64,000 nt of DNA from Escherichia coli. GTDB lineage: Bacteria; Pseudomonadota; Gammaproteobacteria; Enterobacterales; Enterobacteriaceae. The notes beneath the pieces are model-generated. The model saw only the letters and a list, made by a program, of their open reading frames with translations, searched no databases and had not been told where the DNA came from. The translations under genes were made by a program, and so were the position numbers. This document shows, in pieces, positions 7,197-38,463 of this stretch. The DNA lies in NCBI RefSeq assembly GCF_030013205.1, contig NZ_CP122648.1, one strand, 5' to 3'. The first letter of the stretch is position 1. Each line of letters opens with the position of its first letter.

Positions 7197-7208
7197 AATT
7201 CATATCAA

Positions 7209-11714: not shown

Positions 11715-11721
11715 GGTTTTT

Positions 11722-12297
11722 ATGACGCAATCAGAGATGCTGAAATTAATCGCCCGACATGGTTATAACGTTGGATTTGGCGCTAAGAAAAACTTTGCCA
11801 CCTATGATCTGATTTGTAAGGCATCCGGTTGGATTAGCTTTATTTCTCTTGCTGTCGGTGTGTTCGCCCTTTTTATTCCTGAGCTGGCCACAAACGTCAT
11901 TTCCGCGATATTAATTATATTTGGTGTTGCTACAATGTACATTCAGTTTTATGACTCGGAAAAGCAGAGTTATGAAAGTGCGGGGATTGAGCAGACCAAA
12001 ATTTTTAATGAACTTGAAGTCATCTACCGCAACGTAAAAAGCGATGCAAACTTTGACTATCAGCGTACACAACAATCCATCGACGCTATCATGTCCCGGT
12101 TTTACGGCACGGTCATCAGCAAACAGATCTTCGGAAGTAACTGGTACGCACATTATAAATTTTACTGTGAATTTGAAAAAGCATGGGTTGAAGAAGAGCT
12201 GAACCTGACACTGAAGGACAAAATCCCGCTTTCGCTCTGCTTTCTCGCCGGTCTGGCGATCATTTTTACTATAGCTGTCATCTGGAAAACGCCCTGA
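11722..12297 (+). CDS. small multi-TM membrane protein (SLATT-like predicted effector)
   Basis: 191 aa, starts 8 nt after the nucleotidyltransferase stop with SD gagg; two adjacent N-proximal hydrophobic helices and one C-terminal helix. Confidence 0.55.
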   Translation: MTQSEMLKLIARHGYNVGFGAKKNFATYDLICKASGWISFISLAVGVFALFIPELATNVISAILIIFGVATMYIQFYDSEKQSYESAGIEQTKIFNELEVIYRNVKSDANFDYQRTQQSIDAIMSRFYGTVISKQIFGSNWYAHYKFYCEFEKAWVEEELNLTLKDKIPLSLCFLAGLAIIFTIAVIWKTP

Positions 12298-13574: not shown

Positions 13575-14890
13575 ACTATGTTCTCACTCAGTAAATAGCT
13601 TTCAACCTCATCCAGGCCATCCTTAAATACTTGCTTGAAATTATCAAATTCTGCCGTAGGCAAAGGGCCACTTTTGGCAATCCATGTACCTATTTTCAAA
13701 GTCGATTTCTGCGTGATCGCAATCCTAAGGGCGATCAGGTCGTCCCTGCGATCTATTTCATTCATTACTTTAGCTAAGGACTGGAAAATATATTCAACAT
13801 CTCTACTAATTCCCCCTGCATGAAGTGATGCTCGTCGAATGATACACGGTATACATACCCCACATTGCTGCCCCATTCGTTTCCAATGACTGCAGGATAC
13901 TGTACTTTCCACAATTTTAGATAAGAGCTGCTTATTTGAACATTCGGAGATCATTTTTCCTTTTGTCTTAAACTGATATGGATTGATTATTTGACAAGAA
14001 ATACCGAGCGCATCAAAGATCTTTTGTATGCTCGTAATAAAATGTGGATGTGTTGTTCGTGTGCTCAGCGAACCTATCCGCCGTGGAGTAAGTGGTGCAT
14101 TTAATGAGATAAATCCATTTTCAGGTACGAACAAATCAATCTTTTCTTGTTGAGATATCTCTTGTACGGCACAAGCACCTACGGCCGCAAAGGCAAGAAA
14201 ATTGAGGCTACGAGTTCGCATCGTAATATCAGTCACGCCTTGATAAATGTGTGGGTCAGCATTAATCTCAAAGCGCGAAAATTGGCCACTTAATTTTTCA
14301 GCAATCTGATCTTGACGAGACTTATCCCCCTTATAAGCATGACTAACCAAAAGTGGAGCGCGCCCTGCAGCCAGAAGATCTATTGCACCAATAGCTGAAT
14401 CCAGACCTCCTGAAAATAGGCTGACACAGTCAAGCCCTTTTAGCTTAATCAGACGATGCCTTGAATGCTGGCTATAAGGCTCTGGCGGTGCATAACCATC
14501 GTCACAAAATTCGAAATCCCAGATGTCTCCACTAAGAAAATGCAAAGCACTCTCAAGTTCTTTCTTTAGACTAATCCATCTGGATGGTTCATGAAGGGGG
14601 AGTCGTAACGACAATTGGCGGGTCCAACCATCCTCGGAACTTTCACGCTGAACGAAAGTATCTGCTGCAGTTACTGCTAATGCAACACTCAGAAAATCCA
14701 TGACCTTAGCTGGAAGCTGTACTCCCAAACGTCTGATCCGATCAATCGCAGGATTCCCGATAACAGATATATCTCCGCGCCTCTGACCACTTAATCCATA
14801 TAGCTGAACAGGTAACACTTTCTCACTTGCTGGCGGCAAATGGTGATGTTTATGATGGAAAACTAATTGTGTCACTGGTATGCCTCCCAT
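13571..14890 (-). CDS. qatC: QueC-like PP-loop ATPase (QatC)
   Basis: 439 aa; PP-loop SGGLDS; C-terminal Cys cluster CSHW...CGVCIPC as in QueC. Confidence 0.8.
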   Translation of the reverse strand: MGGIPVTQLVFHHKHHHLPPASEKVLPVQLYGLSGQRRGDISVIGNPAIDRIRRLGVQLPAKVMDFLSVALAVTAADTFVQRESSEDGWTRQLSLRLPLHEPSRWISLKKELESALHFLSGDIWDFEFCDDGYAPPEPYSQHSRHRLIKLKGLDCVSLFSGGLDSAIGAIDLLAAGRAPLLVSHAYKGDKSRQDQIAEKLSGQFSRFEINADPHIYQGVTDITMRTRSLNFLAFAAVGACAVQEISQQEKIDLFVPENGFISLNAPLTPRRIGSLSTRTTHPHFITSIQKIFDALGISCQIINPYQFKTKGKMISECSNKQLLSKIVESTVSCSHWKRMGQQCGVCIPCIIRRASLHAGGISRDVEYIFQSLAKVMNEIDRRDDLIALRIAITQKSTLKIGTWIAKSGPLPTAEFDNFKQVFKDGLDEVESYLLSENIV

Positions 14891-15624
14891 TCTTGCCAGG
14901 CCTCAATAATGGCCTGACGTTCAATTTTTACCATTTGGTTTCGTGTGAACGATCTTATGTTACCGGCAAGTTTTGGTGCCATATGTTTATCAACAACAAC
15001 TTTAATCAATTCCCGGAGTTCAATTTCTGCATGAATTGCCTTTGAAGGTGTATCTGCTTTGTTCCATGCCCTATTAGAATCCATTACCATCTGAAGGAAA
15101 ATACTTTCCGCTAGATAACCAATCATTGTGTCAACAATCACACCATCAGTTATTTTTTGAGGATCGAAAATTTCTACGCCATCAAGAGCCTCCACTAAAG
15201 CATGGTTCATGGCCGCACAGATCTTTTCTGAGTCACCATCCTGTGATGTTAAAGCTTGAGCAATAGTTGATATTGCTATTTCGCATGGAAGGCCTGCCAA
15301 ACTGCCCAAATCGATGCTTGGTTCTCCGGGAGCCGAAGGCATTCCCACTAAAGCCCCAAATAATTCGGCCCCAGCTTGCGTGACACTCCCTAATCGCCGA
15401 GCAGCGTTACTGCTCCCTCCGGAGGCTTTTCGCGCGTAGTGCCCTATGGCTTTTCTGAAATCTGCTCGATTTCCATTTGATACCGCATTTCCCAACGATT
15501 CTCGAAATGGCGCAAACCTCCTTTCTTGCGGCGAGGGTAACGGTTGCTGTGGCTGATCATCAGCCCATGGTGGAACCAGCGGAGAGCCACCTCCTGGACC
15601 TTTACTTGATTGTGATGTTCCCAT
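14872..15624 (-). CDS. qatB: QatB (function unknown)
   Basis: 250 aa Gly/Pro-rich protein between the KAP ATPase and QueC-like genes; start overlaps qatA stop by 1 nt, 3' end overlaps qatC by 19 nt. Confidence 0.65.
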   Translation of the reverse strand: MGTSQSSKGPGGGSPLVPPWADDQPQQPLPSPQERRFAPFRESLGNAVSNGNRADFRKAIGHYARKASGGSSNAARRLGSVTQAGAELFGALVGMPSAPGEPSIDLGSLAGLPCEIAISTIAQALTSQDGDSEKICAAMNHALVEALDGVEIFDPQKITDGVIVDTMIGYLAESIFLQMVMDSNRAWNKADTPSKAIHAEIELRELIKVVVDKHMAPKLAGNIRSFTRNQMVKIERQAIIEAWQEWEAYQ

Positions 15625-17408
15625 TAAGCGTCCTTATTCCATTGTTCATCTTTTAATGCTGCAGTCATCCACGCTGGTCGTTTCATCCCCAACTGTAATT
15701 CCTGTAGATAACGAATTAATATGCTGGCTGCATCTGTTGAGTAGCGGGCCAACAGACATGCGCCGGAAAAGCCTCTGGGCTTACGATCCCAATCTGATAC
15801 CTGCCGTAACTGGTTAATTAAACCTTCCATTACAGGTATTTGCTCCTCACGAGGAAGTGCTTTCAAAAGGTTTTCTGCTGTAGGAGAACTAGTGTTTTTC
15901 AATTCAATTAGTGCATTTAGTACTTCCCGTCCAGATGGCGATAAACCAACCACATATGCACCTATTGGCATAGTTTCTCGGGACAGATATATGGCGGCCC
16001 TTAAGTCAATCCCACCAAGACGAGGTTCAAGTTGGGCCCATTGACTGATGAAAGATTTAGTCGTTGGACTATCAGTCCATGTCTTTGGTGCATCAGTAGG
16101 TATTTGACCGCCATTATCGTCAAGCTGTTTAAGTATCTGGGGAACACCTTGTTCAATATCCACGAGATGATATAAATCAGCGGTGCCATCCACTCCAACA
16201 CAGCGTTCAAAAATTACTAGCTTAGTAATAATTGCTTCATCCAAAGGCATTGCTCGTCGCTTCGCAATTTGAGATCGCATTTTCACAACATTCAACAAGC
16301 GTTTAACGATCCTGGGATTACCATGAATAATTGGAGAGTTGGCTAAAATGGGAGCAATACGGTCAGCACGCGCAAACGCCAGCGCGAGGTTGCTATCATC
16401 CGCTTCACCAGTCATTTTTAAGGCCTCCTGACGTGAGATTGGTTCATCTTTCCAGGATTGCTGTAACGCCTTCTCTAAGCCCTCACGGAGCATAGTTATT
16501 TTTTCGCCTTCTAAGCCATGTTCAATGGCATAAAGCATGAACAGATACGAACGGATCTCACGGACCCCAGCCTTAGGCACCCGAATAGGAACCTGGATTA
16601 GCTTATCCAGATAATCTATTTGATGGCGCTGTGATGCCCCTTTGAAGTAATCAGCCACAGAAGAGCGAATCATGTCCTCATCTGCTGCAATAATAAAGGC
16701 TGTATTAGTCAAGAAAAGGAATAGCCTGATAGCTTCAAGTGTATGGATAGCATTGGCAGGGAGACAGCGGTCTAGGTTATCTATTACCACAATGAGTGGC
16801 TTTCCAAGTTCTTCTAGAATTTCCCCATATTCCTTACGAAAGGCATCAATCTGCTGAGGGGGGCTTTTTTTTGTTTGTGGTTTAATCAAACCACAAGCAG
16901 TTTCTTTACCTTCTTTAGCTATATTGCCTAAAGCCTCATACTCTTCCTGACTCTGGATGCCATCGGTGATATTTCTTAATGCACCAATCCCCCTAGAAAG
17001 CAAACCGCCAGTAGGTAATCCTGCCATTAAAGCTGTACCCTCAGCTAGTAATCCCATAGCTCTAAAACCATCAACTCGACTAAGGAGTCTCTTAGTTTTT
17101 GATATAAGGGTAGAATTACCTTCAGCAGCTTTTGTCAATTCTGTAGCGATGACTTCAAGAAGTGCGGCACGGGCGTCGTCGTACCCCTGATAGAGCCAAG
17201 AGTCAAAATTGATAACAATCCAATCTTTGTCGTCTTGCTCAAGTTTTTGCTCTATCAGTTTTAACAGAGAGGATTTACCTGCCCCCCAGTTTCCAAAAAT
17301 TCCGATAGATACTGGTAACATATCTTTCGTGGTAAGTACATCCACGGCTAACTGAGATACTTCACCAAAATTTAGGTAGTCTTCTGATGACTCTTTGTCT
17401 GACCACAT
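15624..17408 (-). CDS. qatA: KAP-family P-loop NTPase (QatA)
   Basis: 594 aa; Walker A GNWGAGKSS near N-terminus. Confidence 0.8.
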   Translation of the reverse strand: MWSDKESSEDYLNFGEVSQLAVDVLTTKDMLPVSIGIFGNWGAGKSSLLKLIEQKLEQDDKDWIVINFDSWLYQGYDDARAALLEVIATELTKAAEGNSTLISKTKRLLSRVDGFRAMGLLAEGTALMAGLPTGGLLSRGIGALRNITDGIQSQEEYEALGNIAKEGKETACGLIKPQTKKSPPQQIDAFRKEYGEILEELGKPLIVVIDNLDRCLPANAIHTLEAIRLFLFLTNTAFIIAADEDMIRSSVADYFKGASQRHQIDYLDKLIQVPIRVPKAGVREIRSYLFMLYAIEHGLEGEKITMLREGLEKALQQSWKDEPISRQEALKMTGEADDSNLALAFARADRIAPILANSPIIHGNPRIVKRLLNVVKMRSQIAKRRAMPLDEAIITKLVIFERCVGVDGTADLYHLVDIEQGVPQILKQLDDNGGQIPTDAPKTWTDSPTTKSFISQWAQLEPRLGGIDLRAAIYLSRETMPIGAYVVGLSPSGREVLNALIELKNTSSPTAENLLKALPREEQIPVMEGLINQLRQVSDWDRKPRGFSGACLLARYSTDAASILIRYLQELQLGMKRPAWMTAALKDEQWNKDA

Positions 17409-22509: not shown

Positions 22510-23079
22510 TCAACTCCGGCTACAGCCAAAATTACGCTCACCGGTACCGTTGACTTTGGTGTACTCTTTCGCGAGATAGTCAGCACGGTTCAGCATATCC
22601 CGTAAACCAGCATCATCATCGCGTTCCAGCCACACCACCGGCCTGGCCGGAAAATGCACCAGCGTGGCATAGCATCCGGCATCCACCCCCAGGGCACTGC
22701 ACCACGCCTGTTTAATCATCCCGGCCAGTGACCCCGGATCGCGGTAATCGCCCGCACCACACCAGGTATCACGGTTGACCAGCAGTATCAGGTGATAGTG
22801 TTTTTTACCCCTGAGCACCCCGAATTCCCGGGCCCAGACGTAATGCAGCCTTGTGGTATGTACGCGTTTACCTTCACGGCGCTTACGCTTCTGGTAAGCA
22901 TCGATTCGGGCTTTCAGGGCATTGATGAAGCGGGATATCACTGCTGCGTCAGTTGCTGCCGGTACATCCGGGAGACGCAGGTCAACCCGCAATGCCGTCA
23001 GACGGGGATGAACATCAAGTGCGCGCAGCACCGTCTCACGGATACGTTGTTGCCAGAAGGGTTTGTACTCGTGTGTCAT
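22510..23079 (-). CDS. YagK/YfjJ-family (inovirus Gp2-like) protein
   Basis: 189 aa; SD ggag; resembles YfjJ-type proteins of CP4-57-like elements (from memory). Confidence 0.55.
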   Translation of the reverse strand: MTHEYKPFWQQRIRETVLRALDVHPRLTALRVDLRLPDVPAATDAAVISRFINALKARIDAYQKRKRREGKRVHTTRLHYVWAREFGVLRGKKHYHLILLVNRDTWCGAGDYRDPGSLAGMIKQAWCSALGVDAGCYATLVHFPARPVVWLERDDDAGLRDMLNRADYLAKEYTKVNGTGERNFGCSRS

Positions 23080-24733: not shown

Positions 24734-24940
24734 ATGAATATCCCAGTTTCACTGATGGATGACCAGATGGTCGACATGGCGTTTATCACTCAACTGACCG
24801 GCTTAACCGATAAGTGGTTTTACAAGCTCATCAAGGATGGTGCCTTTCCAGCCCCCATCAAACTCGGCCGCAGCTCCCGATGGCTGAAAAGTGAAGTGGA
24901 AGCCTGGTTGCAGGCGCGTATTGCTCAGTCCCGTCCGTAA
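24734..24940 (+). CDS. alpA: AlpA-family phage transcriptional regulator
   Basis: 68 aa from ATG with SD aagga; HTH, ...RSSRWLKSEVEAWL... typical of AlpA/Vis. Confidence 0.7.
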   Translation: MNIPVSLMDDQMVDMAFITQLTGLTDKWFYKLIKDGAFPAPIKLGRSSRWLKSEVEAWLQARIAQSRP

Positions 24941-25712: not shown

Positions 25713-27218
25713 TTATGACCGAAAGAATTGCTCTTTCCATTCTCTCAGTTTCTGGCTGTGATAGCCCTGCTCGTAACACGCCTTCAACTCAGAGAACGTG
25801 ATATTGTTTACTCTGGAAAGCAGGACATAGGTTGTTTTACCTTCTCTCTCAAAGGAAAGCTTTAACTGAGACGCAAGAATGTTCAACAGTGCGTTCAGTT
25901 TTTTTCTGTTTCTGAAACGCCCCGGGCCACACTGGAGAATATAATTTTTCCTGACACGAGGCGGGCATTCTCCGCGGCACTCCTCAATGAGCCAGTCGAG
26001 CAGCTCCTGTGCGTCCTGCAGCTGCAGTTCAGATTCATCAGGTAACGCAAATAATTTTTTATATTCATCTGTGTACCACGAACTTATTACGACAGCAGAC
26101 GTCATGATATCGGCAGTAATTTTCCCTTCCCCCTGACTGAAATACTGCAATAATGCAGCAATTCTCGCAATGTTTTCTGTTTTTTTTGAAACATGTCCCC
26201 GAAACGCACTTAACGGACCGGAAGGAGATAAATCCTGCTCAAGAACATTATAGTGCTCAATAAATATTTTTTGCGCTTCAGGCGAAAAATGCAGACAATA
26301 CCGTTCATCCTTACTGGATTTTTCAATACTGGCTCTGGCCAGTTCCATTAATCGTTCATGAAATGCCGTTAACGATCCTCCCGGGGTCACAGCTCCGTTA
26401 ATAAAGCGTTTCCCCTGCGTGCTTGCAGGTTTACTGATAAGGCAACGGGCAAGAAAACCACTGTCTCTGGCAACAGCACCTTTTCGCTCCATATATCGGT
26501 CAAAAAGACCGGGTTGCACCATGAGGGATAACGTCATTCTGGCATTTTCAATCATCTGTTCGGGTTCATTCTTTCTGTCCACAGACAACACTGAGCCATC
26601 CCACATTTTGTTAATAAAAGGCAACTCAGACAGGGTATATCCATCAAATATAATACCAGCTTCATCTGACATAATACCAACTGAACGCCATTTACCACAA
26701 AGCTGATTCTTAATTGCCGCAGTCGTGGCATCATTAACAATGAATTTATACCTCACAGGTTCTTCCGCACTGTTTTTCTGAAGTACTTCCAGTTGTCTGA
26801 GGGTTTCTGACTCATCCGCGCCTTTGCGGAGTTCTTTATTCAGTTTTGACAACAATGCTTTTTTCTGAGCCTTTAAAAGCTCTTCCTTGTTTTTCCAGAC
26901 AGCCAGTTCACTTTTGTATCTGGAATATAACTGCATCTCCTGCTGGTACAGGGGCTTCATTAATAATTTGTCCACTGCGGTTTTTCGTTCTCCGGACTCG
27001 GCAAGCGTCAGGAAAAAAAGAGAAACCGGCCCCCGCAGTGTATTCAGTCTGCAGACATCAATCAGATTCTGGCAGACAAGTGAAACAGCGCCCAGTGCAG
27101 ATGCTGCCACAAGCCCAAGGGGAGCCTGCGTAATTTGCTGAGCTTCAATAACGGCATCACGAATGAGTGGAGGCAGCGAACTCAGGGGGAACTCATCACA
27201 AGGCTGACCGAATGACAT
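25713..27218 (-). CDS. DUF3987-like (YfjI-family) island protein
   Basis: 501 aa from ATG 27218 with SD tgaggt (track ORF starts at upstream TTG); follows alpA as in CP4-57-like elements. Confidence 0.5.
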   Translation of the reverse strand: MSFGQPCDEFPLSSLPPLIRDAVIEAQQITQAPLGLVAASALGAVSLVCQNLIDVCRLNTLRGPVSLFFLTLAESGERKTAVDKLLMKPLYQQEMQLYSRYKSELAVWKNKEELLKAQKKALLSKLNKELRKGADESETLRQLEVLQKNSAEEPVRYKFIVNDATTAAIKNQLCGKWRSVGIMSDEAGIIFDGYTLSELPFINKMWDGSVLSVDRKNEPEQMIENARMTLSLMVQPGLFDRYMERKGAVARDSGFLARCLISKPASTQGKRFINGAVTPGGSLTAFHERLMELARASIEKSSKDERYCLHFSPEAQKIFIEHYNVLEQDLSPSGPLSAFRGHVSKKTENIARIAALLQYFSQGEGKITADIMTSAVVISSWYTDEYKKLFALPDESELQLQDAQELLDWLIEECRGECPPRVRKNYILQCGPGRFRNRKKLNALLNILASQLKLSFEREGKTTYVLLSRVNNITFSELKACYEQGYHSQKLREWKEQFFRS

Positions 27219-28402
27219 AGTAACCTCACTACATACAGATATAAAAGCACTGCAATTTTGGCTATTAATAGCAAAAATAGCAGTCAAATCAATATGAGGT
27301 AAAAATTTTTGTTGATTTAATGGTTAAATAATAACCACAGTGTGTTTTGCTGCTGAAGAAAGACAAAATGAATCTGTGTGTCCCCTCCTTCCCTTCGGAG
27401 CATATCTACTGTTCAAATTTTACACAATCACGTACAAACAAAAAGCATCATCCCGGGTATTGCAGATACCGGTTTCCTGCCGGGAAGAATCATAAACAGA
27501 AAACCCGGAATAACACCTTCAGAAAGCGACTTCCCTCCTGAAGAATAATAAAGAAGACGATAATTCCTGTCCTGAATTCGATATTTCATGGATATGACGC
27601 CATTTTTATAAATGACAAAAAAGCATTTAATGCTGACACATCAGGAAAAACAAAATAATACCCCCCTGCCGATACAGATAAAACACACCAATTTTCTTTG
27701 AATGCTCCCGCATAATTGTCAGACAGTGATAAAAATGGGTTATGACAATCTTTCTTCAACAAAAACCTGTCTTCTGTTTTTTTACATCAGCATCCTGCTT
27801 AAATTAAACGTAAACGAGCACAGCATTTCTGTACCAGAACTAAAAATCAGCTATTATTCAGCACCCTCAATCAATAAAATCTCAACAATATTATCCGGAA
27901 CAGCATGGTACCTCTATCAAAGGTTTTTAACAGGACAATTAACATTACTGAACAGCCTTCCTGCAGAACCACTGCAAATATAAAACCAGGGCGCAGGATA
28001 AATAATCACACCCTGAAAAATGCTGTCACACAAAAAAAAATTAATCACTGCACATAATCCGGAAGCGAAATACCAAACAACCCGGTATCAACAGGTATCA
28101 TTGCGTGCGCCACTCTTATAAAAAACACACAGCAGAAGTAAGATAATTATAAACGTAATTTTAATATCTCTCTGCCCCCCACAAAAAAACACTGAAAAAA
28201 AAATACTCACATCAGTAAACATGAGCACACCTGATAATCAGGCTGTCAGAGGAATGATATTTCCCTTTTACGGGATAGTCAGCCCGCCATTGAACAATGT
28301 TCAAATCGATTCAAAATAATTTCAGACAGATATTATCGTTGTGAGTCCCCCGCCACCTTTCCGGTACGCGGGATTTTGTCTTTTTTCACCGGGAATACAT
28401 GT

Positions 28403-29275
28403 ATGAATCCGTCTGATGCCATTGAGGCAATTGAAAAACCGCTCTCCTCCCTGCCTTATTCGCTTTCCCGTCACATCCTGGAACATCTGCGTAAACTCAC
28501 CAGCCACGAACCCATGATTGGCATTATGGGGAAAAGCGGGGCCGGTAAATCCTCACTCTGTAATGCGCTGTTTCAGGGGGAGGTCACCCCGGTCAGTGAT
28601 GTTCACGCCGGCACCCGGGAAGTGCGGCGCTTCCGTCTGAGTGGCCACGGTCACAGCATGATTATCACTGACCTGCCCGGGGTGGGCGAGAGCCGGGACA
28701 GGGATGCAGAGTATGAAGCCCTGTACCGTGACATTCTGCCTGAACTTGACCTGGTACTGTGGCTGATTAAAGCCGATGACCGTGCCCTGTCTGTGGATGA
28801 GTATTTCTGGCGACACATCCTGCACCGGGGACATCAGCGGGTACTGTTTGTGGTGACGCAGGCCGATAAAACGGAGCCCTGCCATGAATGGGATATGGCC
28901 GGTATTCAGCCTTCTCCCGCACAGGCACAGAACATTCGCGAAAAAACGGAGGCGGTATTCCGTCTGTTCCGGCCCGTACATCCGGTTGTGGCCGTATCGG
29001 CCCGCACCGGCTGGGAACTGGATACGCTGGTCAGCGCGCTCATGACAGCACTTCCCGACCATGCCGCCAGTCCCCTGATGACCCGCCTGCAGGACGAGCT
29101 GTGCACGGAATCTGTCCGGGGGCAGGCCCGTGAACAGTTTACCGGTGCGGTGGACCGGATATTTGACACGGCGGAGAGCGTCTGTGTTGCCTCTGTTGCA
29201 CGCACGGTTCTGCGTGCCGTCCGTGACACGGTGGTCTCTGTTGCCCGCGCGGTATGGAACTGGATTTTCTTCTGA
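28403..29275 (+). CDS. yeeP: YeeP/YkfA-family GTPase
   Basis: P-loop GKSGAGKSS; placed immediately upstream of the antigen 43 gene as in CP4-44. Confidence 0.7.
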   Translation: MNPSDAIEAIEKPLSSLPYSLSRHILEHLRKLTSHEPMIGIMGKSGAGKSSLCNALFQGEVTPVSDVHAGTREVRRFRLSGHGHSMIITDLPGVGESRDRDAEYEALYRDILPELDLVLWLIKADDRALSVDEYFWRHILHRGHQRVLFVVTQADKTEPCHEWDMAGIQPSPAQAQNIREKTEAVFRLFRPVHPVVAVSARTGWELDTLVSALMTALPDHAASPLMTRLQDELCTESVRGQAREQFTGAVDRIFDTAESVCVASVARTVLRAVRDTVVSVARAVWNWIFF

Positions 29276-29389
29276 ACAGTCTGCCAGGGAAATGCCTGAT
29301 TACATTACGTTAACCAACTGAAAACATGACACAAACACCTCATACTCCTCCTGTTTCTCTTGCATGACTGCCTCGTCATTAATAGAATA

Positions 29390-29432
29390 AAACGATCGAT
29401 AAAACAGGTATCGATCGCCATCATCGATCGTT
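29390..29432. promoter_or_regulatory. three clustered GATC sites upstream of Ag43 (Dam/OxyR phase-variation switch)
   Basis: GATC at 29394, 29413 and 29426 within 36 bp, about 220 bp upstream of the Ag43 start. Confidence 0.6.
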
Positions 29433-29646
29433 TATAGTGGTTAATGACCTGCGAAAAGGCAGTTGATTCTCTTCATCATGCAGAACGGAATTGCACACAA
29501 CGGACTGATGCTTCTCTGGCGGATGAGAGAGGGGAAGCATTTATGTCCGAGAAAAACCACTTTATCTGACCATGCTGTTTTGTACCTGCCGGTATCCACA
29601 TTTGTGGGTACCGGCTTTTTTATTCACCCTCTGTAAGGAAAAGCTG

Positions 29647-32493
29647 ATGAAACGACATCTGAACACCAGCTACAGGCTGGTATGGAATCACATTACGGGC
29701 ACCCTGGTGGTGGCTTCCGAACTGGCCCGCTCACGGGGGAAACGTACTGGCGTGGCGCTGGCGCTGTCTCTTGCCACCGCCACTTCAGTCCCGGCCCTGG
29801 CTGCTGACAGTGTTGTACAGGCAGGGGAAATCGTGAACGGCGGGACACTGGTAAATCATGACAACCAGATTGTCTTCGGTACGACCAACGGAATGACCAT
29901 CAGTACCGGGCTGGAGTATGGGCCGGATAACGAGGCCAATACCGGCGGGCAATGGGTACAGGATGGCGGCACAGCCAGTAATACCACCATCAGCAACGGC
30001 GGGCTCCAGTTTGTAGGTGCCGGGGGAAAGGCTACAGACACAATAATCAATGAAGGAGGCGGACAAAGTCTGAAGGGACTGGCACTGAACACCACGCTGA
30101 ATGGTGGCGAGCAGTGGATGCATGAAGGTGCGATAGCCACAGGAACCGTCATTAATGATAAGGGCTGGCAGGTCGTCAAACCCGGCGCAGTGGCAACAGA
30201 CACCGTTGTGAATACCGGCGCAGAAGGAGGACCGGATGCAGAAAATGGTGATACCGGGCAGTTTGTTCGCGGAAATGCCGTACGTACCACTATCAATAAA
30301 AATGGTCGTCAGATTGTGGTAGCCACCGGAGTGGCAAACACCACGGTGGTTTATGCCGGCGGCGACCAGACGGTACATGGCCACGCACTGGATACCACGC
30401 TGAATGGCGGTAACCAGTATGTGCACAACGGCGGTACAACGTCTGACACTGTTGTGAACAGTGACGGCTGGCAGATTATCAAGGAAGGTGGTCTGGCGGA
30501 TTTCACCACCGTTAACCAGAAAGGCAAACTGCAGGTGAACGCCGGTGGTACAGCCACGAATGTCACCCTGAAGCAGGGCGGCGCACTGGTCACCAGTACT
30601 GCTGCAACGGTTCTTGGCAGCAACCGTCTGGGGAATTTCACGGTGGAAAACGGTAAGGCTGACGGCGTTGTTCTGGAGTCCGGCGGTCGCCTGGATGTAC
30701 TGGAGGGCCATTCAGCGCAGAATACCCTGGTGGATGACGGCGGTACCCTGGCAGTGTCTGCCGGTGGTAAGGCAACAGATGTCACCATGACATCCGGTGG
30801 TGCCCTGATTGCAGACAGTGGTGCCACTGTTGAGGGGACCAATGCCAGCGGTAAGTTCAGTATTGATGGCATATCCGGTCAGGCCAGCGGCCTGCTGCTG
30901 GAAAATGGCGGCAGCTTTACGGTTAATGCCGGGGGACAGGCCGGTAACACCACTGTCGGATATCGTGGAACACTGACGCTGGCTGCCGGGGGAAGTCTGA
31001 GTGGCAGAACACAGCTCAGTAAAGGTGCCAGCATGGTACTGAATGGCGATGTGGTCAGTACCGGCGATATTGTTAACGCAGGGGAGATTCGCTTTGATAA
31101 TCAGACAACACCGGATGCCGCGCTGAGCCGTGCTGTTGCAAAAAGTAACTCCCCGGTAACGTTCCATAAACTGACCACCAGTAACCTCACCGGCCAGGGC
31201 GGCACCATCAATATGCGTGTCAGCCTTGATGGCAGTAATGCCTCAGACCAGCTGGTAATTAATGGTGGTCAGGCAACCGGCAAAACCTGGCTTGCGTTCA
31301 CAAATGTCGGAAACAGCAATCTCGGGGTGGCAACCTCCGGACAGGGTATCAGGGTTGTGGATGCACAGAATGGCGCCACCACAGAAGAAGGTGCGTTTGC
31401 CCTGAGTCGCCCGCTTCAGGCCGGCGCCTTTAACTACACCCTGAACCGTGACAGCGATGAAGACTGGTACCTGCGCAGTGAAAATACTTATCGTGCTGAA
31501 GTCCCCCTGTATGCCTCCATGCTGACACAGGCAATGGACTATGACCGGATTCTGGCAGGCTCCCGCAGCCATCAGACCGGTGTAAGCGGTGAAAATAACA
31601 GCGTCCGTCTCAGCATTCAGGGCGGTCATCTCGGGCACGATAACAACGGTGGTATTGCCCGTGGGGCCACGCCGGAAAGCAGCGGCAGCTATGGCTTCGT
31701 CCGTCTGGAGGGTGACCTGCTCAGAACAGAGGTTGCCGGTATGTCTCTGACGACAGGGGTGTATGGTGCTGCAGGCCATTCTTCCGTTGAAGTTAAGGAT
31801 GATGACGGCTCCCGCGCCGGCACGGTCCGGGATGATGCCGGCAGCCTGGGCGGATACCTGAATCTGGTACACACATCCTCCGGCCTGTGGGCTGACATTG
31901 TGGCACAGGGAACCCGCCACAGCATGAAAGCGTCATCGGACAATAACGACTTCCGCGCCCGGGGCTGGGGCTGGCTGGGCTCACTGGAAACCGGTCTGCC
32001 CTTCAGTATCACTGACAATCTGATGCTGGAGCCACAACTGCAGTACACCTGGCAGGGACTTTCCCTGGATGACGGCCAGGATAACGCCGGTTATGTGAAG
32101 TTCGGGCATGGCAGTGCACAACATGTGCGTGCCGGCTTCCGTCTGGGCAGCCACAACGATATGACCTTTGGTGAAGGCACCTCATCCCGTGACACCCTGC
32201 GCGACAGTGCAAAACACAGTGTGCGTGAACTGCCGGTGAACTGGTGGGTACAGCCTTCTGTTATCCGCACCTTCAGTTCCCGGGGTGACATGAGCATGGG
32301 GACAGCCGCTGCCGGCAGTAACATGACGTTATCACCGTCACAGAATGGCACGTCACTGGACCTGCAGGCCGGACTGGAAGCCCGTGTCCGGGAAAATATC
32401 ACCCTGGGGGTACAGGCCGGTTATGCCCACAGCGTCAGCGGCAGCAGTGCTGAAGGTTATAACGGTCAGGCCACGCTGAATGTGACTTTCTGA
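29647..32493 (+). CDS. flu: antigen 43 self-associating autotransporter
   Basis: 949 aa from ATG 29647 (MKRHLNTSYRLVWNH...); long Gly/Thr-rich beta-helix passenger and C-terminal beta-barrel. Confidence 0.9.
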   Translation: MKRHLNTSYRLVWNHITGTLVVASELARSRGKRTGVALALSLATATSVPALAADSVVQAGEIVNGGTLVNHDNQIVFGTTNGMTISTGLEYGPDNEANTGGQWVQDGGTASNTTISNGGLQFVGAGGKATDTIINEGGGQSLKGLALNTTLNGGEQWMHEGAIATGTVINDKGWQVVKPGAVATDTVVNTGAEGGPDAENGDTGQFVRGNAVRTTINKNGRQIVVATGVANTTVVYAGGDQTVHGHALDTTLNGGNQYVHNGGTTSDTVVNSDGWQIIKEGGLADFTTVNQKGKLQVNAGGTATNVTLKQGGALVTSTAATVLGSNRLGNFTVENGKADGVVLESGGRLDVLEGHSAQNTLVDDGGTLAVSAGGKATDVTMTSGGALIADSGATVEGTNASGKFSIDGISGQASGLLLENGGSFTVNAGGQAGNTTVGYRGTLTLAAGGSLSGRTQLSKGASMVLNGDVVSTGDIVNAGEIRFDNQTTPDAALSRAVAKSNSPVTFHKLTTSNLTGQGGTINMRVSLDGSNASDQLVINGGQATGKTWLAFTNVGNSNLGVATSGQGIRVVDAQNGATTEEGAFALSRPLQAGAFNYTLNRDSDEDWYLRSENTYRAEVPLYASMLTQAMDYDRILAGSRSHQTGVSGENNSVRLSIQGGHLGHDNNGGIARGATPESSGSYGFVRLEGDLLRTEVAGMSLTTGVYGAAGHSSVEVKDDDGSRAGTVRDDAGSLGGYLNLVHTSSGLWADIVAQGTRHSMKASSDNNDFRARGWGWLGSLETGLPFSITDNLMLEPQLQYTWQGLSLDDGQDNAGYVKFGHGSAQHVRAGFRLGSHNDMTFGEGTSSRDTLRDSAKHSVRELPVNWWVQPSVIRTFSSRGDMSMGTAAAGSNMTLSPSQNGTSLDLQAGLEARVRENITLGVQAGYAHSVSGSSAEGYNGQATLNVTF

Positions 32494-32820
32494 TAATCAG
32501 GTCACTCCCCTTCAGGCCCCGGCCATCATGACCGGGGCTTTTTACTTTCAGGGAGCAACAGATATGCCTGGTTGTACATCACGTTTATTGCCCGAAGGCC
32601 CTTTTGCTGCCAAATGGCATCTGAATCGATCACAGTTTGACCGGTTATTACCCGATCCCGATGGGGTTATTGGGTGATCTCCTTCCATAAAAATACGCAG
32701 CTCGCCAGTGAAGGGCTTCTCAGACAATAAACGTCATTCATTTCATCGGTCAGGCCGCGTCTTCTCCGGGAGACGCGGCTTTTTCATTTATACCGCTAAC
32801 TCATTCATAAGGAGCAAATC

Positions 32821-33639
32821 ATGCGATTAGCAAGTCGTTTTGGTCATGTAAACCAGATACGCCGTGACCGTCCGCTGACACATGAAGAACTGATGCACTA
32901 TGTACCCAGTATTTTTGGGGAAGATCGGCATACCTCCCGCAGTGAACGCTATGCGTACATTCCCACCATCACCGTACTGGAAAGCCTGCAGCGGGAAGGT
33001 TTTCAGCCATTCTTCGCCTGCCAGACCCGCGTGCGCGATCCGGGCCGCCGGGGATACACCAGACACATGCTGCGTCTGCGGCGGGCCGGGGAGATAACCG
33101 GACAACATGTCCCTGAAATTATTCTGCTCAACTCCCATGACGGTACCTCCAGCTACCAGATGCTGCCGGGTTACTTCAGATTCGTCTGCCAGAACGGCTG
33201 CGTCTGCGGTCAGTCTCTGGGGGAAGTCCGTGTGCCCCACCGGGGAAATGTGGTGGACAGAGTCATTGAAGGGGCTTACGAGGTAGTGGGCGTTTTTGAC
33301 CGGATTGAGGAAAAGCGTGATGCCATGCAGTCTCTGGTCCTGCCGCCACCGGCACGTCAGGCGCTGGCACAGGCGGCACTGACTTACCGTTATGGTGACG
33401 AACATCAGCCGGTCACCACCGCCGACATTCTGACGCCACGACGCAGGGAGGATTACGGTAAGGACCTGTGGAGTGCATATCAGACCATCCAGGAGAATAT
33501 GCTGAAAGGCGGGATTTCCGGTCGCAGCGCTAAAGGAAAACGTATCCACACCCGTGCCATTCACAGCATCGACACGGACATTAGGCTCAACCGCGCATTG
33601 TGGGTGATGGCAGAAACGCTGCTGGAGAGCCTGCGCTGA
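32821..33639 (+). CDS. DUF945/YfjQ-family protein
   Basis: 272 aa, SD aaggag; CP4-type island protein. Confidence 0.65.
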   Translation: MRLASRFGHVNQIRRDRPLTHEELMHYVPSIFGEDRHTSRSERYAYIPTITVLESLQREGFQPFFACQTRVRDPGRRGYTRHMLRLRRAGEITGQHVPEIILLNSHDGTSSYQMLPGYFRFVCQNGCVCGQSLGEVRVPHRGNVVDRVIEGAYEVVGVFDRIEEKRDAMQSLVLPPPARQALAQAALTYRYGDEHQPVTTADILTPRRREDYGKDLWSAYQTIQENMLKGGISGRSAKGKRIHTRAIHSIDTDIRLNRALWVMAETLLESLR

Positions 33640-33730
33640 TGCTGTTTCCCTGAAAGTGCAGCCCTGACTCACGTCTGTACCAGTCCCCAGGCATTCTTCC
33701 ATTCATTTGCTTTTTATAAGGAATAATCTC

Positions 33731-34216
33731 ATGACAACCTCTTCGCATAATTCCACCACACCTTCTGTTTCCGTAACCGCTGCATCAGGGAATAACCAGT
33801 CTCAACTGGTTGCCACTCCCGTCCCTGATGAACAGCGCATCAGTTTCTGGCCGCAGCACTTTGGCCTCATTCCACAGTGGGTGACCCTGGAGCCCCGTAT
33901 CTTCGGCTGGATGGACCGTCTGTGTGAAGACTACTGCGGTGGTATCTGGAATCTGTATACCCTGAACAACGGCGGGGCATTTATGGCACCCGAACCGGAT
34001 GACGATGATGACGAAACATGGGTACTGTTCAATGCCATGAACGGTAACCGCGCTGAAATGAGCCCGGAAGCCGCCGGTATTGCCGCCTGTCTGATGACGT
34101 ACAGCCATCATGCCTGTCGTACGGAGTGTTATGCCATGACGGTCCATTATTACCGGCTGCGGGATTACGCCCTGCAGCATCCTGAATGCAGCGCCATTAT
34201 GCGCATCATCGACTGA
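33731..34216 (+). CDS. antirestriction protein (YfjX/KlcA-like)
   Basis: 161 aa from ATG with SD aagga; acidic DDDDDE patch. Confidence 0.65.
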   Translation: MTTSSHNSTTPSVSVTAASGNNQSQLVATPVPDEQRISFWPQHFGLIPQWVTLEPRIFGWMDRLCEDYCGGIWNLYTLNNGGAFMAPEPDDDDDETWVLFNAMNGNRAEMSPEAAGIAACLMTYSHHACRTECYAMTVHYYRLRDYALQHPECSAIMRIID

Positions 34217-34230
34217 GCCGGAGAAGCACA

Positions 34231-34707
34231 ATGCAACAACTTTCCTTTCTGCCCGGAGAGATGACAACCAGAGAGCGCAGTCTCATTCTGCGGGCCCTGA
34301 AAACCCTGGACCGCCATCTTCATGAACCCGGTGTGGCCTTCACCTCCACGCATGCGGCACGGGAATGGCTGATTCTGAACATGGCAGGACTGGAGCGGGA
34401 AGAGTTCCGGGTACTGTATCTGAACAACCAGAATCAGCTGATTGCGGGTGAAACCCTCTTCACCGGCACCATCAACCGCACGGAGGTCCATCCCCGGGAA
34501 GTGATTAAACGTGCCCTGTACCACAATGCCGCTGCCGTGATACTGGCACACAACCACCCGTCCGGTGAAGTCACTCCCAGTAAGGCAGACCGGCTTATTA
34601 CGGAACGTCTGGTACAGGCACTGGCCATGGTGGATATCCGGGTGCCGGACCATCTGATAGTCGGTGGCAGCCAGGTTTTCTCCTTTGCCGAACACGGTCT
34701 GCTTTAA
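34231..34707 (+). CDS. RadC-like JAB-domain protein (YeeS/YfjY family)
   Basis: 158 aa; JAMM motif HNHPSGE. Confidence 0.8.
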   Translation: MQQLSFLPGEMTTRERSLILRALKTLDRHLHEPGVAFTSTHAAREWLILNMAGLEREEFRVLYLNNQNQLIAGETLFTGTINRTEVHPREVIKRALYHNAAAVILAHNHPSGEVTPSKADRLITERLVQALAMVDIRVPDHLIVGGSQVFSFAEHGLL

Positions 34708-34775
34708 CCCGTCACCGTCACAACCACATCACACCTGTTTTCACTTTTATCTTCTGTCTTCAGAGGTATCCCACC

Positions 34776-34997
34776 ATGAAAATTATCACCCGTGGTGAAG
34801 CCATGCGCATTCACCGTCAGCATCCGGCATCCCGTCTTTTTCCGTTCTGCACCGGTAAGTACCGCTGGCACGGCAGCACTGAGGCATATACCGGTCGTGA
34901 AGTGCAGGATATTCCCGGTGTGCTGGCCGTGTTTGCTGAACGCCGTAAGGACAGTTTTGGCCCGTATGTCCGGCTGATGAGTGTAACCCTGAACTGA
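34776..34997 (+). CDS. YeeT/DUF987-family protein
   Basis: 73 aa, SD gagg. Confidence 0.6.
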   Translation: MKIITRGEAMRIHRQHPASRLFPFCTGKYRWHGSTEAYTGREVQDIPGVLAVFAERRKDSFGPYVRLMSVTLN

Positions 34998-35015
34998 GTC
35001 AGGAAGGGAATTCTG

Positions 35016-35660
35016 ATGAGCAGAATTATCACCACCACCGTGTATACGCTGGATGAACTTTCCTGCCCGGCACGGGAAAAAGCCCGCGACGGGTACCGTC
35101 AGCATCATGCTGACAGCAACTGGTATGAAAACGTGTATGAAGACTTCAGGGAGGTCTGTGACATTTTCGGGATTAACCTCCGCCAGCGTGTTATCCGGCT
35201 CAGCAGTGGCAGGTTTATGGAAGAGCCGTGCATCTGGTTCAGCGGATTCTGCAGCCAGGGGGACGGAGCCTGTTTTGAAGGACGCTGGCACTGGCAGTCA
35301 GCAACAGCCAGGAGAATCCGGGAGTATGCCCCACAGGACCGTGAAATTCATCGTATCGCGGATGCCCTGCAGTCGGTACAGAAGCGTAACTTCTGGCAGT
35401 TACAGGCTGAAATCAGTCACCGGGGACGTTACTGCCATCCGTACAGCATGGATATCACCGTCACCCGGAACAGTCCGACTGGTCAGGTAATGACAACCGA
35501 TGCGGAAGCCGCTGTCAGCGAAGCCCTGCGCGACCTGGCCTTCTGGTTGTACCGTCAGCTGGAAAACGAGTACGACTGGCTGACCTCAGACGCCGCTGTG
35601 GATGAGGCCCTTCTCATCAACGAATACACCTTCACCGAAGCCGGTCTGCGCGCCGGCTGA
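35016..35660 (+). CDS. hypothetical protein (Cys/Trp-rich)
   Basis: 214 aa, SD ggaaggg; sits between yeeT-like gene and cbeA. Confidence 0.5.
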   Translation: MSRIITTTVYTLDELSCPAREKARDGYRQHHADSNWYENVYEDFREVCDIFGINLRQRVIRLSSGRFMEEPCIWFSGFCSQGDGACFEGRWHWQSATARRIREYAPQDREIHRIADALQSVQKRNFWQLQAEISHRGRYCHPYSMDITVTRNSPTGQVMTTDAEAAVSEALRDLAFWLYRQLENEYDWLTSDAAVDEALLINEYTFTEAGLRAG

Positions 35661-35709
35661 CTCGTCATCGTTAAACTATCATTCACCGATTTTCTGTGAG
35701 GATTTTATC

Positions 35710-36078
35710 GTGTCAGACACACTCCATGAAACAAATTATCCCGACGACAACAACGACCGCTCCTGGTGGGGGCTACCCTGCACCGTGACGCCCTGTTTCA
35801 GGGCACGTCTGGTGCAGGAAGGGAACCGGTTGCATTACCTTGCAGACCGTGCCGGTATCAGAGGCCGGTTCAGCGACGCGGATGCGTACCATCTGGACCA
35901 GGCCTTTCCGCTGCTGATGAAACAACTGGAACTCATGCTCACCAGCGGTGAACTCAGTCCCCGCCATCAGCATACCGTCACGCTGTATGCAAAAGGGCTG
36001 ACCTGCGAAGCCGACACCCTCGGCAGTTGTGGCTACGTTTATATGGCTGTTTATCCGACGCCCGAAACGAAAAAGTAA
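35710..36078 (+). CDS. cbeA: CbeA/YeeU-family type IV antitoxin
   Basis: 122 aa from GTG 35710 with SD gagga (MSDTLHETNYPDD...WWGLPCTVTPCF...). Confidence 0.8.
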   Translation: MSDTLHETNYPDDNNDRSWWGLPCTVTPCFRARLVQEGNRLHYLADRAGIRGRFSDADAYHLDQAFPLLMKQLELMLTSGELSPRHQHTVTLYAKGLTCEADTLGSCGYVYMAVYPTPETKK

Positions 36079-36167
36079 ATAATCAGAATAACCTTCTGCT
36101 CCGGCCAGGTGCTTTCACCACACCACTTTCCCATTTCTCATCTCTGCATATCAGGAAAATCTTCAGT

Positions 36168-36545
36168 ATGAAAACATTACCTGTATTACCCGGGCAGGCG
36201 GCCGGTTTACGCCCGTCTCCGGTTGAAATCTGGCAGACACTGCTTACCAGACTGCTGGACCAGCATTACGGCCTCACGCTGAATGACACGCCGTTTGCCG
36301 ATGAACGTGTGATTGAGCAGCATATTGAGGCAGGCATATCACTGTGTGATGCGGTGAACTTTCTCGTGGAAAAATACGCGCTGGTGCGTACCGACAAGCC
36401 GGGATTCAACGCCTGTACCCACTCTCAGTTAATAAACAGCATCGATATCCTCCGGGCCCGCCGGGCAACAGGCCTGATGACCCGCGACAATTACAGAACG
36501 GTGAACAATATCACCCGGGGTAAACATTCGGAGGCGAAACGATGA
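36168..36545 (+). CDS. cbtA: CbtA/YeeV-family toxin
   Basis: 125 aa (MKTLPVLPGQAAGLRPSPVEIWQ...) directly downstream of the antitoxin. Confidence 0.8.
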   Translation: MKTLPVLPGQAAGLRPSPVEIWQTLLTRLLDQHYGLTLNDTPFADERVIEQHIEAGISLCDAVNFLVEKYALVRTDKPGFNACTHSQLINSIDILRARRATGLMTRDNYRTVNNITRGKHSEAKR

Positions 36546-37030
36546 AACTGACCCTGACACTGGAAGCCGACAGTATTAATGTGCAGGCACTGAACATGGA
36601 GCGAATTGTTGTTGACGTCGATGGTATTGAGCTCGCTGAACTGATTAATAAGGTCGCTGAAAACGGTTATTCACTCCGCGTGGTGGATGCTCCCGAACAG
36701 CAGACAACGGATTCTCCACCATCGTTTACGGCCCTTACCGGCATACGCTGCAGTACCGCACATATCACGGAAAAGGATAACGCCTGGCTGTACTCGCTGT
36801 CACACCAGACCAGTGACTTCGGTGAATCAGAATGGATTCATTTCACAGGTAGCGGATATCTGTTACGTACCGATGCGTGGTCATATCCGGTTCTGCGGCT
36901 TAAACGCCTGGGGCTGTCAAAAACGTTCCGTCGTCTGGTTGTCACACTCATCCAACGTTATGGCGTCAGTCTCATTCATCTGGATGCCAGCGCTGAATGT
37001 CTGCCGGACCTGCCCACTTTCGACTGGTAA
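36542..37030 (+). CDS. YeeW-like protein
   Basis: 162 aa, start overlaps cbtA stop (ATGA). Confidence 0.55.
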   Translation: MKLTLTLEADSINVQALNMERIVVDVDGIELAELINKVAENGYSLRVVDAPEQQTTDSPPSFTALTGIRCSTAHITEKDNAWLYSLSHQTSDFGESEWIHFTGSGYLLRTDAWSYPVLRLKRLGLSKTFRRLVVTLIQRYGVSLIHLDASAECLPDLPTFDW

Positions 37031-37031
37031 C

Positions 37032-37239
37032 CAGGAACAACATGAAATCATTAACCACAGAAACCGCACTGGATATTCTGATTGCGTGGCTACAAGACAA
37101 TATCGACTGCGAATCGGGAATTATCTTTGACAACGATGAGGATAGAACGGATTCGGCAGCACTGTTGCCCTGTATCGAACAGGCCAGAGAGGATGTCCGT
37201 ACCCTGCGTCAGCTGCAGTTTCTGCAACAGAACCGGTGA
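37032..37239 (+). CDS. small island protein (YpjJ-like)
   Basis: 68 aa from ATG with SD agga. Confidence 0.4.
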
Positions 37240-37323
37240 GTCTTACTCACCAGACTTCATTCCACTGACGCCAGCCTGAATACGGCTGGCGTTTTCGTTT
37301 ATCTGCAAAAAGGAATATCGATT

Positions 37324-38166
37324 ATGTCTGAAATCACAGCCTCTCGTCCGGAAGTGGTCAACGGGCATACGGACGTTATCTGCTCAACCAGTATCCGCCA
37401 CATTCTGGCTGTACGAAAGAGTACATTGCTGCAAATCGACACACTTATCCGGCAACTGGCTGAAATATCAGCAATGACAGAAAGTATTGGAGGTAAAACG
37501 GCTCTGGACTGGGCCATGAAACAGGATTTTCGCTGCGGTTGCTGGCTGATGGAGAAACCGGAAACCGCAATGAAAGCCATCACACGCAATCTTGATCGCG
37601 AACTCTGGCGTGATCTGATGCAACGTTCCGGGTTGCTGAGTCTGATGGATGCGCAGACCCGGGACACATGGTACAGGTCACTGGAATATGATAATTTTCC
37701 GGAAATCAGCGAAGCGAACATTCTGAGCACATTTGAACAACTGCACCAGAACAAAGATGAAGTGTTTGAACGGGGAGTGATCAACGTCTTCAAAGGGCTG
37801 AGCTGGGATTACAAAACCAACTCACCCTGTAAATTTGGCAGTAAAATTATCGTCAACAATCTGGTGAGGTGGGACCAGTGGGGATTTCATCTTATCAGTG
37901 GAATGCAGGCAGATCGCCTGGCTGACCTGGAAAGAATGTTGCATCTGCTCAGCGGTAAACCGATCCCCGACAACCGGGGGAATATCACCATTAATCTGGA
38001 TGACCACATACAGTCCGTTCAGGGTAAAGGACGCTATGAAGATGAGATGTTCATCATTAAATACTTTAAGAAGGGATCTGCACACATCACTTTCAAAAGG
38101 CTGGAGCTGATTGACAGAATTAACGATATAATAGCTAGGCACTTTCCTTCTGTGCTCTCAGCCTGA
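37324..38166 (+). CDS. DUF4942-like island protein
   Basis: 280 aa, SD aaagga; family assignment from memory. Confidence 0.5.
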   Translation: MSEITASRPEVVNGHTDVICSTSIRHILAVRKSTLLQIDTLIRQLAEISAMTESIGGKTALDWAMKQDFRCGCWLMEKPETAMKAITRNLDRELWRDLMQRSGLLSLMDAQTRDTWYRSLEYDNFPEISEANILSTFEQLHQNKDEVFERGVINVFKGLSWDYKTNSPCKFGSKIIVNNLVRWDQWGFHLISGMQADRLADLERMLHLLSGKPIPDNRGNITINLDDHIQSVQGKGRYEDEMFIIKYFKKGSAHITFKRLELIDRINDIIARHFPSVLSA

Positions 38167-38276: not shown

Positions 38277-38298
38277 TTCGATTCCGAGTCCGGCACCA
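38277..38298 (+). repeat. attR: duplicate of pheU 3' end
   Basis: ttcgattccgagtccggcacca matches 7174-7196 with one G fewer; flanking about 150 bp also resembles the region downstream of pheU. Confidence 0.75.
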
Positions 38299-38463
38299 AA
38301 TTCATATAAACGGACCTCCACGGAGGTCCGTTTTTCGTTTCAGGACGCCACAATTTAAGCGTTCTGCCTAAAAATCATTTCTACCGAACTCAACCAAATT
38401 CTCCCCACAACACCAGCATTTTGCGGGTATATCCCAATTCGGGAAAATTTGTTCCTGAGCTAT

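Follow-up and report, generated by a model that had tools for sequence, protein, structure and literature searches.

A co-oriented gene block in an Escherichia coli island at pheU as the probable conserved distal backbone of a CP4-type element

The block described here occupies positions 28376-38166 of a 64,000-nt stretch of Escherichia coli DNA from contig NZ_CP122648.1 (the window, to which all coordinates refer unless stated otherwise) and lies in a genomic island at the tRNA-Phe gene pheU. It is a co-oriented run of open reading frames (ORFs) on the + strand, every one of them at the coordinates given in an earlier note on this DNA, and it is 100% identical to the chromosome of the porcine E. 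coli strain ETEC4079 (RefSeq). When the genes were named by a Pfam scan and from the RefSeq annotation of the identical sequence, we found, in order, the genes for a YeeP-family GTPase, the small RNA IsrC, an Ag43-family adhesin, a DUF932 protein, an antirestriction protein, a RadC-like protein, a DUF987 protein, a 214-aa protein, the toxin-antitoxin (TA) proteins CbeA and CbtA, and DUF5983, DUF957 and DUF4942 proteins (Table 1). The earlier note had compared this order with that of the K-12 element CP4-44. The ORFs, their coordinates and their homology bore this out, but CP4-44 itself lacks the DUF932 and antirestriction genes, having yeeR instead, and the counterparts of these two genes are found in CP4-57 and CP4-6. 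In addition, the gene called 'DUF945' in that note encodes a DUF932 protein, and the DUF957 and DUF4942 genes were absent from its list.

The whole island measures ~31 kb and extends from pheU to attR, where the 3' end of the tRNA gene is repeated just ahead of cadC; the gene order at the site is dsbD, dicD/yjdC and tRNA-Phe on one side and, beyond the island, cadC on the other. The last 23 nt of pheU recur at attR with a 1-nt deletion, which is the arrangement of a tRNA-linked island, namely integration at the 3' end of a tRNA gene and a copy of that end, in direct orientation, at the other edge of the island. A P4-family integrase gene beside the tRNA gene, backbone genes of the AlpA, YfjI and YfjJ types, and distal genes of the GTPase, DUF932, antirestriction, RadC, DUF987, CbeA and CbtA families (Pfam, identities to K-12 paralogues) place the island in the CP4 type. 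The defence cargo that the earlier note had placed at pheU was identified by PADLOC as a type I cyclic oligonucleotide-based antiphage signalling system (CBASS) and QatABCD.

The results showed that homology to CP4-44 is very strong, with YeeP, YeeS, YeeT, CbeA and CbtA at 88-97% protein identity, so that the doubt raised earlier about identities being too low does not apply. A synteny comparison with CP4-44, CP4-57 and CP4-6 showed that the layout of the whole island fits CP4-57, and the left part of the island, to which the block had been said to be 'fused', is itself CP4-57 backbone (integrase, YfjI, YfjJ/YagK and AlpA-like proteins; Table 1). Since the left part is CP4-57-like and CP4-57 shares the order of backbone, cargo, GTPase and TA genes, the block is better described as conserved distal backbone than as an add-on. 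We thus consider, with a probability of about 0.88, that the block forms the conserved backbone at the attR end of a ~31-kb CP4-type island placed at pheU by a P4-family integrase, and that it is composed of the four units described below. The pheU island and the K-12 elements CP4-44, CP4-57 and CP4-6 are all elements of one kind.

Such blocks are widespread. Matches to 28376-38166 were present in 5029 of 5426 complete E. coli genomes, at a median of 3 places per genome, and in 2801 of the genomes one place spanned at least 80% of the 9.8-kb block. The block is already known, being the commonest E. coli island backbone and annotated in RefSeq; the literature yielded nothing directly useful that describes the CP4 block as one unit. 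The observation is real but ordinary, and its one modestly interesting item is the uncharacterised and mislabelled family of the 214-aa protein.

Table 1. Features of the pheU island and of the block 28376-38166, with K-12 counterparts of the block proteins (protein identity in brackets)
Feature	Position	Strand	Evidence	CP4-44 counterpart	CP4-57 / CP4-6 counterpart
tRNA-Phe (pheU); 3' end is the attL core	7121..7196	+	ARAGORN, Rfam		
P4-family tyrosine integrase	7394..8656	+	35% identity to K-12 IntA over 420 aa; phrog_1 integrase 1e-63		
Type I CBASS (cargo): oligonucleotide cyclase and two-transmembrane (2TM) effector	10386..12297	+	PADLOC Cyclase 9e-177, 2TM effector 2e-82		
QatD, QatC, QatB, QatA (defence cargo)	12849..17408	-	PADLOC QatA-D, E-values 6e-97 down to 0		
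YfjJ/YagK-like backbone protein (annotated 'inovirus Gp2 family')	22510..23079	-	38% identity to YagK and YfjJ		
AlpA-like helix-turn-helix regulator/excisionase	24734..24940	+	PHROG excisionase/regulator families 1e-9; weak 25% match to AlpA (BLAST)		
YfjI-family (DUF3987, helicase-like) backbone protein	25713..27218	-	52% identity to K-12 YfjI; phrog_2373 DNA helicase 2e-82		
YeeP/YkfA/YfjP-family GTPase, full length	28403..29275	+	Pfam MMR_HSR1 1e-14	YeeP pseudogene fragment (97%)	YfjP / YkfA (49%)
IsrC (Rfam IS102) small RNA	29392..29628	+	RF00124, 68.2 bits vs gathering score 46; between GTPase and Ag43, position as K-12 isrC		
Ag43/Cah-family self-associating autotransporter adhesin, 948 aa	29647..32493	+	ESPR, AIDA x7, AC_1, Autotransporter	Flu (73%)	none
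Strong terminator-like hairpin 3' of Ag43	32752..32781	+	13-bp stem, then T run; left edge of probable DUF932-DUF957 operon		
DUF932 protein (YfjQ/YafZ family)	32821..33639	+	Pfam DUF932 2e-51	none	YfjQ / YafZ (74-75%)
Antirestriction protein (YfjX/YafX family)	33731..34216	+	Pfam PF03230 2e-37	none	YfjX / YafX (67-68%)
RadC-like JAB-domain protein (YeeS family)	34231..34707	+	Pfam RadC 3e-45	YeeS (95%)	YfjY (78%) / YkfG (82%)
DUF987 protein (YeeT)	34776..34997	+	Pfam DUF987 6e-40	YeeT (96%)	YpjJ (66%) / YkfH (67%)
214-aa ORF (DUF8835), intact	35016..35660	+	No Pfam match; phrog_5162 1e-35	none annotated	none annotated
CbeA (YeeU)-family type IV antitoxin, GTG start	35710..36078	+	CbeA_antitoxin PF06154 1e-53	CbeA (88%)	YfjZ (67%) / YafW (66%)
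CbtA (YeeV)-family toxin	36168..36545	+	CbtA_toxin PF06755 8e-57	CbtA (92%)	YpjF (65%) / YkfI (57%)
DUF5983 protein, full-length form of truncated K-12 YeeW	36542..37030	+	Pfam DUF5983_N and DUF5983	Truncated YeeW, 64-aa fragment (60%)	none
DUF957 protein	37042..37239	+	RefSeq annotation of identical sequence	none annotated	none annotated
Terminator-like hairpin	37267..37293	+	10-bp stem, 7 G-C pairs, then T run; right edge of probable operon		
DUF4942 protein, final gene of island	37324..38166	+	RefSeq annotation; PHROG matches	none annotated	none annotated
attR: last 23 nt of pheU 3' end, repeated with a 1-nt deletion	38277..38299	+	Sequence, alignment		

In the proposed account, the YeeP-family GTPase would form the first unit of the block. 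The second would consist of IsrC and the Ag43 adhesin, which is probably phase-variable and would be cargo for autoaggregation and biofilm formation. The third would be an operon of nine genes (DUF932, antirestriction, RadC-like JAB, DUF987, the 214-aa protein, CbeA, CbtA, DUF5983 and DUF957), in which the early genes, i.e. the antirestriction gene and its neighbours, may serve establishment in a new host and restriction evasion in the manner of conjugative elements, and CbtA/CbeA may stabilise the island. DUF4942 would make up the fourth.

The adhesin has the architecture of the Ag43/Cah family, with an extended signal peptide, AIDA-type repeats, an autochaperone and a C-terminal beta-barrel. 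The IsrC gene upstream of it ends in a terminator hairpin (29588-29615), and three GATC sites at its start (29394, 29413 and 29426) align, at differing spacing, with the switch sites of K-12 agn43, which suggests a possible Dam/OxyR phase switch as for agn43. A simple terminator scan of the + strand detected strong hairpins only at the two positions listed in Table 1; between them there were just two weak candidates, with 3 G-C pairs each and both inside coding sequence. Because the strong terminators bracket DUF932-DUF957, these nine genes probably constitute one transcription unit.

The CbeA_antitoxin and CbtA_toxin genes are adjacent, with the antitoxin gene first, as in a type IV TA system. 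CbtA blocks the polymerisation of FtsZ and MreB, and CbeA counteracts it by bundling the filaments, without binding the toxin. Heller et al. are said to have described in 2017 the CbtA contact residues for MreB and FtsZ; R15 and F65, which we take to be these residues for MreB and FtsZ, respectively, are both present in the CbtA sequence of the window.

The earlier note regarded the 214-aa ORF as an extra gene inserted between yeeT and cbeA. The ORF is real and intact, but examination of related islands led us to reject a recent insertion. The 73-nt spacer between yeeT and cbeA in K-12 keeps the ribosome-binding site and the first 8 codons of the ORF (32 of 34 nt identical to window 35006-35039), and alignment resumes only at window 35682, immediately 5' of cbeA, showing that ~640 bp have been deleted in K-12. 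In strain E2855 (serX island), the ORF has been reduced to its last ~113 nt, which begin right after the stop codon of the DUF987 gene; this deletion is unlike that of K-12. Since K-12 and E2855 retain different remnants, the ORF is not an insertion. Copies of the ORF at a coverage of at least 80% were present in 1942 of the 5426 genomes, including CFT073. Judged from these sequences, the operon originally included the 214-aa gene, which deletion has removed repeatedly, for example in CP4-44 of K-12.

The family of the 214-aa protein comprises 3642 clusters at 50% identity and has the conserved motifs FSGFxSQGDGACFEG, YxH and NEYxFTExG. Its members are acidic, with a median pI of 4.8 and a median net charge of -15, and the newest annotations of the Prokaryotic Genome Annotation Pipeline name the family DUF8835; a literature search for 'DUF8835' returned no papers. 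The ORF had no match in Pfam, NCBIfam or PADLOC, and when 102 diverse family members were compared with Pfam, only isolated, scattered matches at noise level turned up. The AlphaFold (AF2) model has a mean predicted local distance difference test score (pLDDT) of 96.4. Sequence and profile searches of PDB returned nothing below E = 0.24, Foldseek against PDB returned nothing at E <= 0.001, and uncharacterised phage proteins were the sole structural neighbours in a fold search of BFVD. The database name 'antitoxin' corresponds to COG4118/COG2161 (Phd/YefM), and the PhdYeFM_antitox domain was absent, by Pfam, from the ORF and from the 102 diverse members; we consider the label to have been propagated in error. 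We also considered whether the ORF encodes a DNA mimic with antirestriction activity, as ArdA is. The acidic nature of the family fits, there was no support from sequence or fold, and we rejected the idea, keeping it as no more than a possibility. DUF8835 is a very large family seen only on mobile elements; its fold is predicted with confidence and has no solved relative, and its 'antitoxin' label is misleading.

All occurrences of the family that we found were on, or resembled, mobile elements. They included 112 plasmid records, 41 of which were typed as conjugative, and 52 phage records, among them Caulobacter jumbo phages, where the gene lies within the annotated terminal repeats or in the first ~9 kb, among small genes without known function. 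Homologues at 32-36% identity occur in phages CcrColossus (gp015, 5001-5648 of the locus), CcrPW, CcrBL9 and CcrSC and in related phages. A survey of genome loci covered the best 80, of which 79 were alphaproteobacterial (~60% identity). Of these 79, 46 encoded a ParB_N protein upstream of the homologue and 60 a Strawberry-notch-like helicase of 1444 aa downstream; 13 had RadC nearby, 8 had an antirestriction homologue, and none had a CbtA or CbeA gene within 6 kb. In Tistrella, the homologue is located ~2 kb upstream of NikA-relaxase genes. The conjugative plasmid p2 of Pukyongiella litopenaei (MOBP/MPF_T) carries, at 198-10810 of the locus, genes for ParB, a single-stranded DNA-binding protein (SSB), DUF932, two RadC proteins, DUF6878, three hypothetical proteins, the homologue and an MbcA/RES TA pair. 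The leading regions of conjugative plasmids have been described as anti-defence islands (Samuel et al. 2024, PMC11541004).

The position of the gene within the TA module differs by genus. In E. coli it lies upstream of CbeA; in Klebsiella michiganensis (8001-8645 of the locus) and Salmonella diarizonae (6001-6642 of the locus), a homologue of ~60% identity separates the CbeA gene from the CbtA gene. Some E. coli (about 13 clusters) encode natural in-frame fusions of the 214-aa protein and CbeA, 342-343 aa in length and rarer than the unfused form, which arose by deletion of the intergenic spacer (junction ...TEAGLRAG-LPEDFIV-SDKLH...).

Several further observations concern the remainder of the island. 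Downstream of attR (38300-38520) lies a decayed duplicate, ~245 bp long, of the sequence that follows pheU (7197-7420); the terminator hairpin of the tRNA gene (38308-38333) is part of it, as is a degenerate version of the region around the integrase start codon. The duplicate looks like what an older or tandem island left behind at pheU. Insertion sequence (IS) remnants at 8820-10251 (IS4, IS66 TnpA and transposase fragments; RefSeq annotation), between the integrase and CBASS genes, suggest a past rearrangement of the cargo region. The backbone also contains the haemolysin expression modulator gene hha (23819-24031, - strand), with genes for two 'zinc ribbon' proteins and a DUF4222 protein nearby. 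Identity to ETEC4079 does not extend over the whole window: an indel of 63 bp, in-frame in length, is located in the hypothetical gene 17540-18742 (- strand), which adjoins QatA, and shifts the coordinate offset to ETEC4079 from +8438 to +8375. The product of this gene has a weak PADLOC match to PD-Lambda-4_B (4e-6). At the distal end, the stand-alone DUF4942 protein resembles the C-terminal part of the PHROG 'DNA methyltransferase' family (phrog_6263, 1e-15, profile positions 80-287 of 548) and has no methyltransferase domain of its own.

The possibility exists that a CP4-44-like block was joined secondarily to an unrelated P4-type defence island at pheU and that the 214-aa gene was later inserted between yeeT and cbeA. 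The closeness of the block to CP4-44 at the protein level, the step in G+C content from ~40-43% at 26-28 kb to 54-57% within the block, which makes the island a mosaic, and the lack of the ORF in K-12 would all be in line with such a history. However, the left part of the island is homologous to CP4-57, where backbone, cargo, GTPase and TA genes follow one another in the same way, and the later insertion is already contradicted by the scar in K-12, as well as by the different deletion boundary in E2855, the 1942 genomes with the ORF and the presence of a homologue in a comparable DUF932/RadC/TA array on an alphaproteobacterial conjugative plasmid. We therefore regard this history as very improbable. 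It is also conceivable in principle that we are dealing with a genuine cryptic P4-like satellite prophage whose degenerate phage genes make up the block, as the P4-family integrase next to the tRNA gene, the historical 'CP4' name and the PHROG matches of several block proteins might indicate. P4 hallmark genes (capsid-size, Sid, Psu, Delta and the alpha primase-helicase) were, however, found neither in the RefSeq annotation of the island nor in PHROG scans of the backbone proteins (cos was not searched for), and the gene content of the block matches conjugative-plasmid arrays instead; it is extremely unlikely that the island is such a satellite.

For the 214-aa protein itself, a role as a third component of the CbtA/CbeA module, e.g. 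a regulator, co-antitoxin or sensor, would fit the old database name. In Enterobacteriaceae its gene has always been seen beside the TA pair, in two positions, it is fused in-frame to CbeA in some E. coli, and the Pukyongiella homologue stands directly ahead of another TA pair. On the other hand, that name denotes a Phd/YefM domain that is absent, the 79 alphaproteobacterial loci have neither CbtA nor CbeA within 6 kb, the phage homologues lie among early genes with no annotated TA, and CbtA/CbeA of K-12, where the ORF has been deleted, works as a studied two-gene system. A third-component function is thus improbable. The most likely role, proposed tentatively from genomic context, would be in early-entry host takeover or anti-defence after the arrival of the DNA, and the gene, which lies in neighbourhoods typical of anti-defence genes, is a reasonable and cheap anti-defence candidate. 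It is rather doubtful whether DUF8835 as a whole is a new-fold family of mobile elements that acts at DNA entry (anti-defence or host takeover) and is common to phage terminal repeats, arrays beside SSB, DUF932 and RadC genes on conjugative plasmids and integrative and conjugative elements (ICEs), and CP4-type islands, and whether, by extension, the DUF932-to-TA operon is an establishment cassette of conjugative elements. If this were true, the so-called cryptic P4 prophage islands would spread, now or once, by conjugative mobilisation rather than as phage satellites.

Some results weigh against parts of the account that we favour, in which the block is the four-unit distal backbone of a CP4-type island with establishment genes. 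That the 214-aa gene has so often been deleted in E. coli means that the island can be kept without it; neither experiment nor homology ties its product to any activity, and the fold searches came out empty. No relaxase, oriT, mating-pair or SSB genes were seen in the RefSeq annotation of the island, and the parallel with conjugative plasmids is one of gene content only. The case for phase switching of Ag43 consists of three GATC sites, which are spaced somewhat differently from those in K-12, and the operon structure was predicted by the simple terminator scan rather than from transcripts.

Comparison with known systems places the block as follows. The SSB/DUF932/RadC arrays of conjugative plasmids and ICEs resemble the E. 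coli operon in gene content: the Pukyongiella plasmid array is likewise co-oriented, and antirestriction, DUF932 and RadC genes, DUF8835 and a TA pair make up the operon here. They differ in the TA pair, which is MbcA/RES on the Pukyongiella plasmid and CbtA/CbeA in the island, and any likeness to leading-region arrays would lie in the gene content (antirestriction, DUF932 and RadC). The CbtA/CbeA proteins correspond closely to YeeV/YeeU of K-12, with full-length Pfam matches and the antitoxin gene upstream, and differ in being preceded by the 214-aa gene, which K-12 lacks.

CP4-57 (ssrA island) and CP4-6 (thrW island) have the same layout as the pheU island, i.e. integrase, AlpA, YfjI and YfjJ, defence cargo, GTPase, DUF932, antirestriction, RadC, DUF987 and a distal TA pair, with the block proteins 49-82% identical and the backbone proteins 35-52%. 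They occupy other tRNA or transfer-messenger RNA (tmRNA) sites and carry AbpAB and RnlAB as cargo, in contrast with CBASS and Qat here; the K-12 copies are devoid of Ag43, IsrC, the 214-aa ORF, DUF5983, DUF957 and DUF4942, and, compared with CP4-57, the YfjI and YfjJ-like genes are on the opposite strand in the present island. CP4-44 (yeeP-isrC-flu-yeeR-yeeS-yeeT-cbeA-cbtA-yeeW) shares the order GTPase, IsrC, Ag43, RadC, DUF987, CbeA, CbtA and YeeW. Apart from yeeR, which occupies the place held here by the DUF932 and antirestriction genes, it differs in that its yeeP and yeeW are truncated, both being full length in the present block, and in that it has no DUF957 or DUF4942 gene and only the deletion scar of the 214-aa ORF; K-12 has no annotated counterpart of any of these three. 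CP4-44 is a decayed copy of the present module and, for that reason, a poor reference for it, and its decay is what led here to the false call of an insertion.

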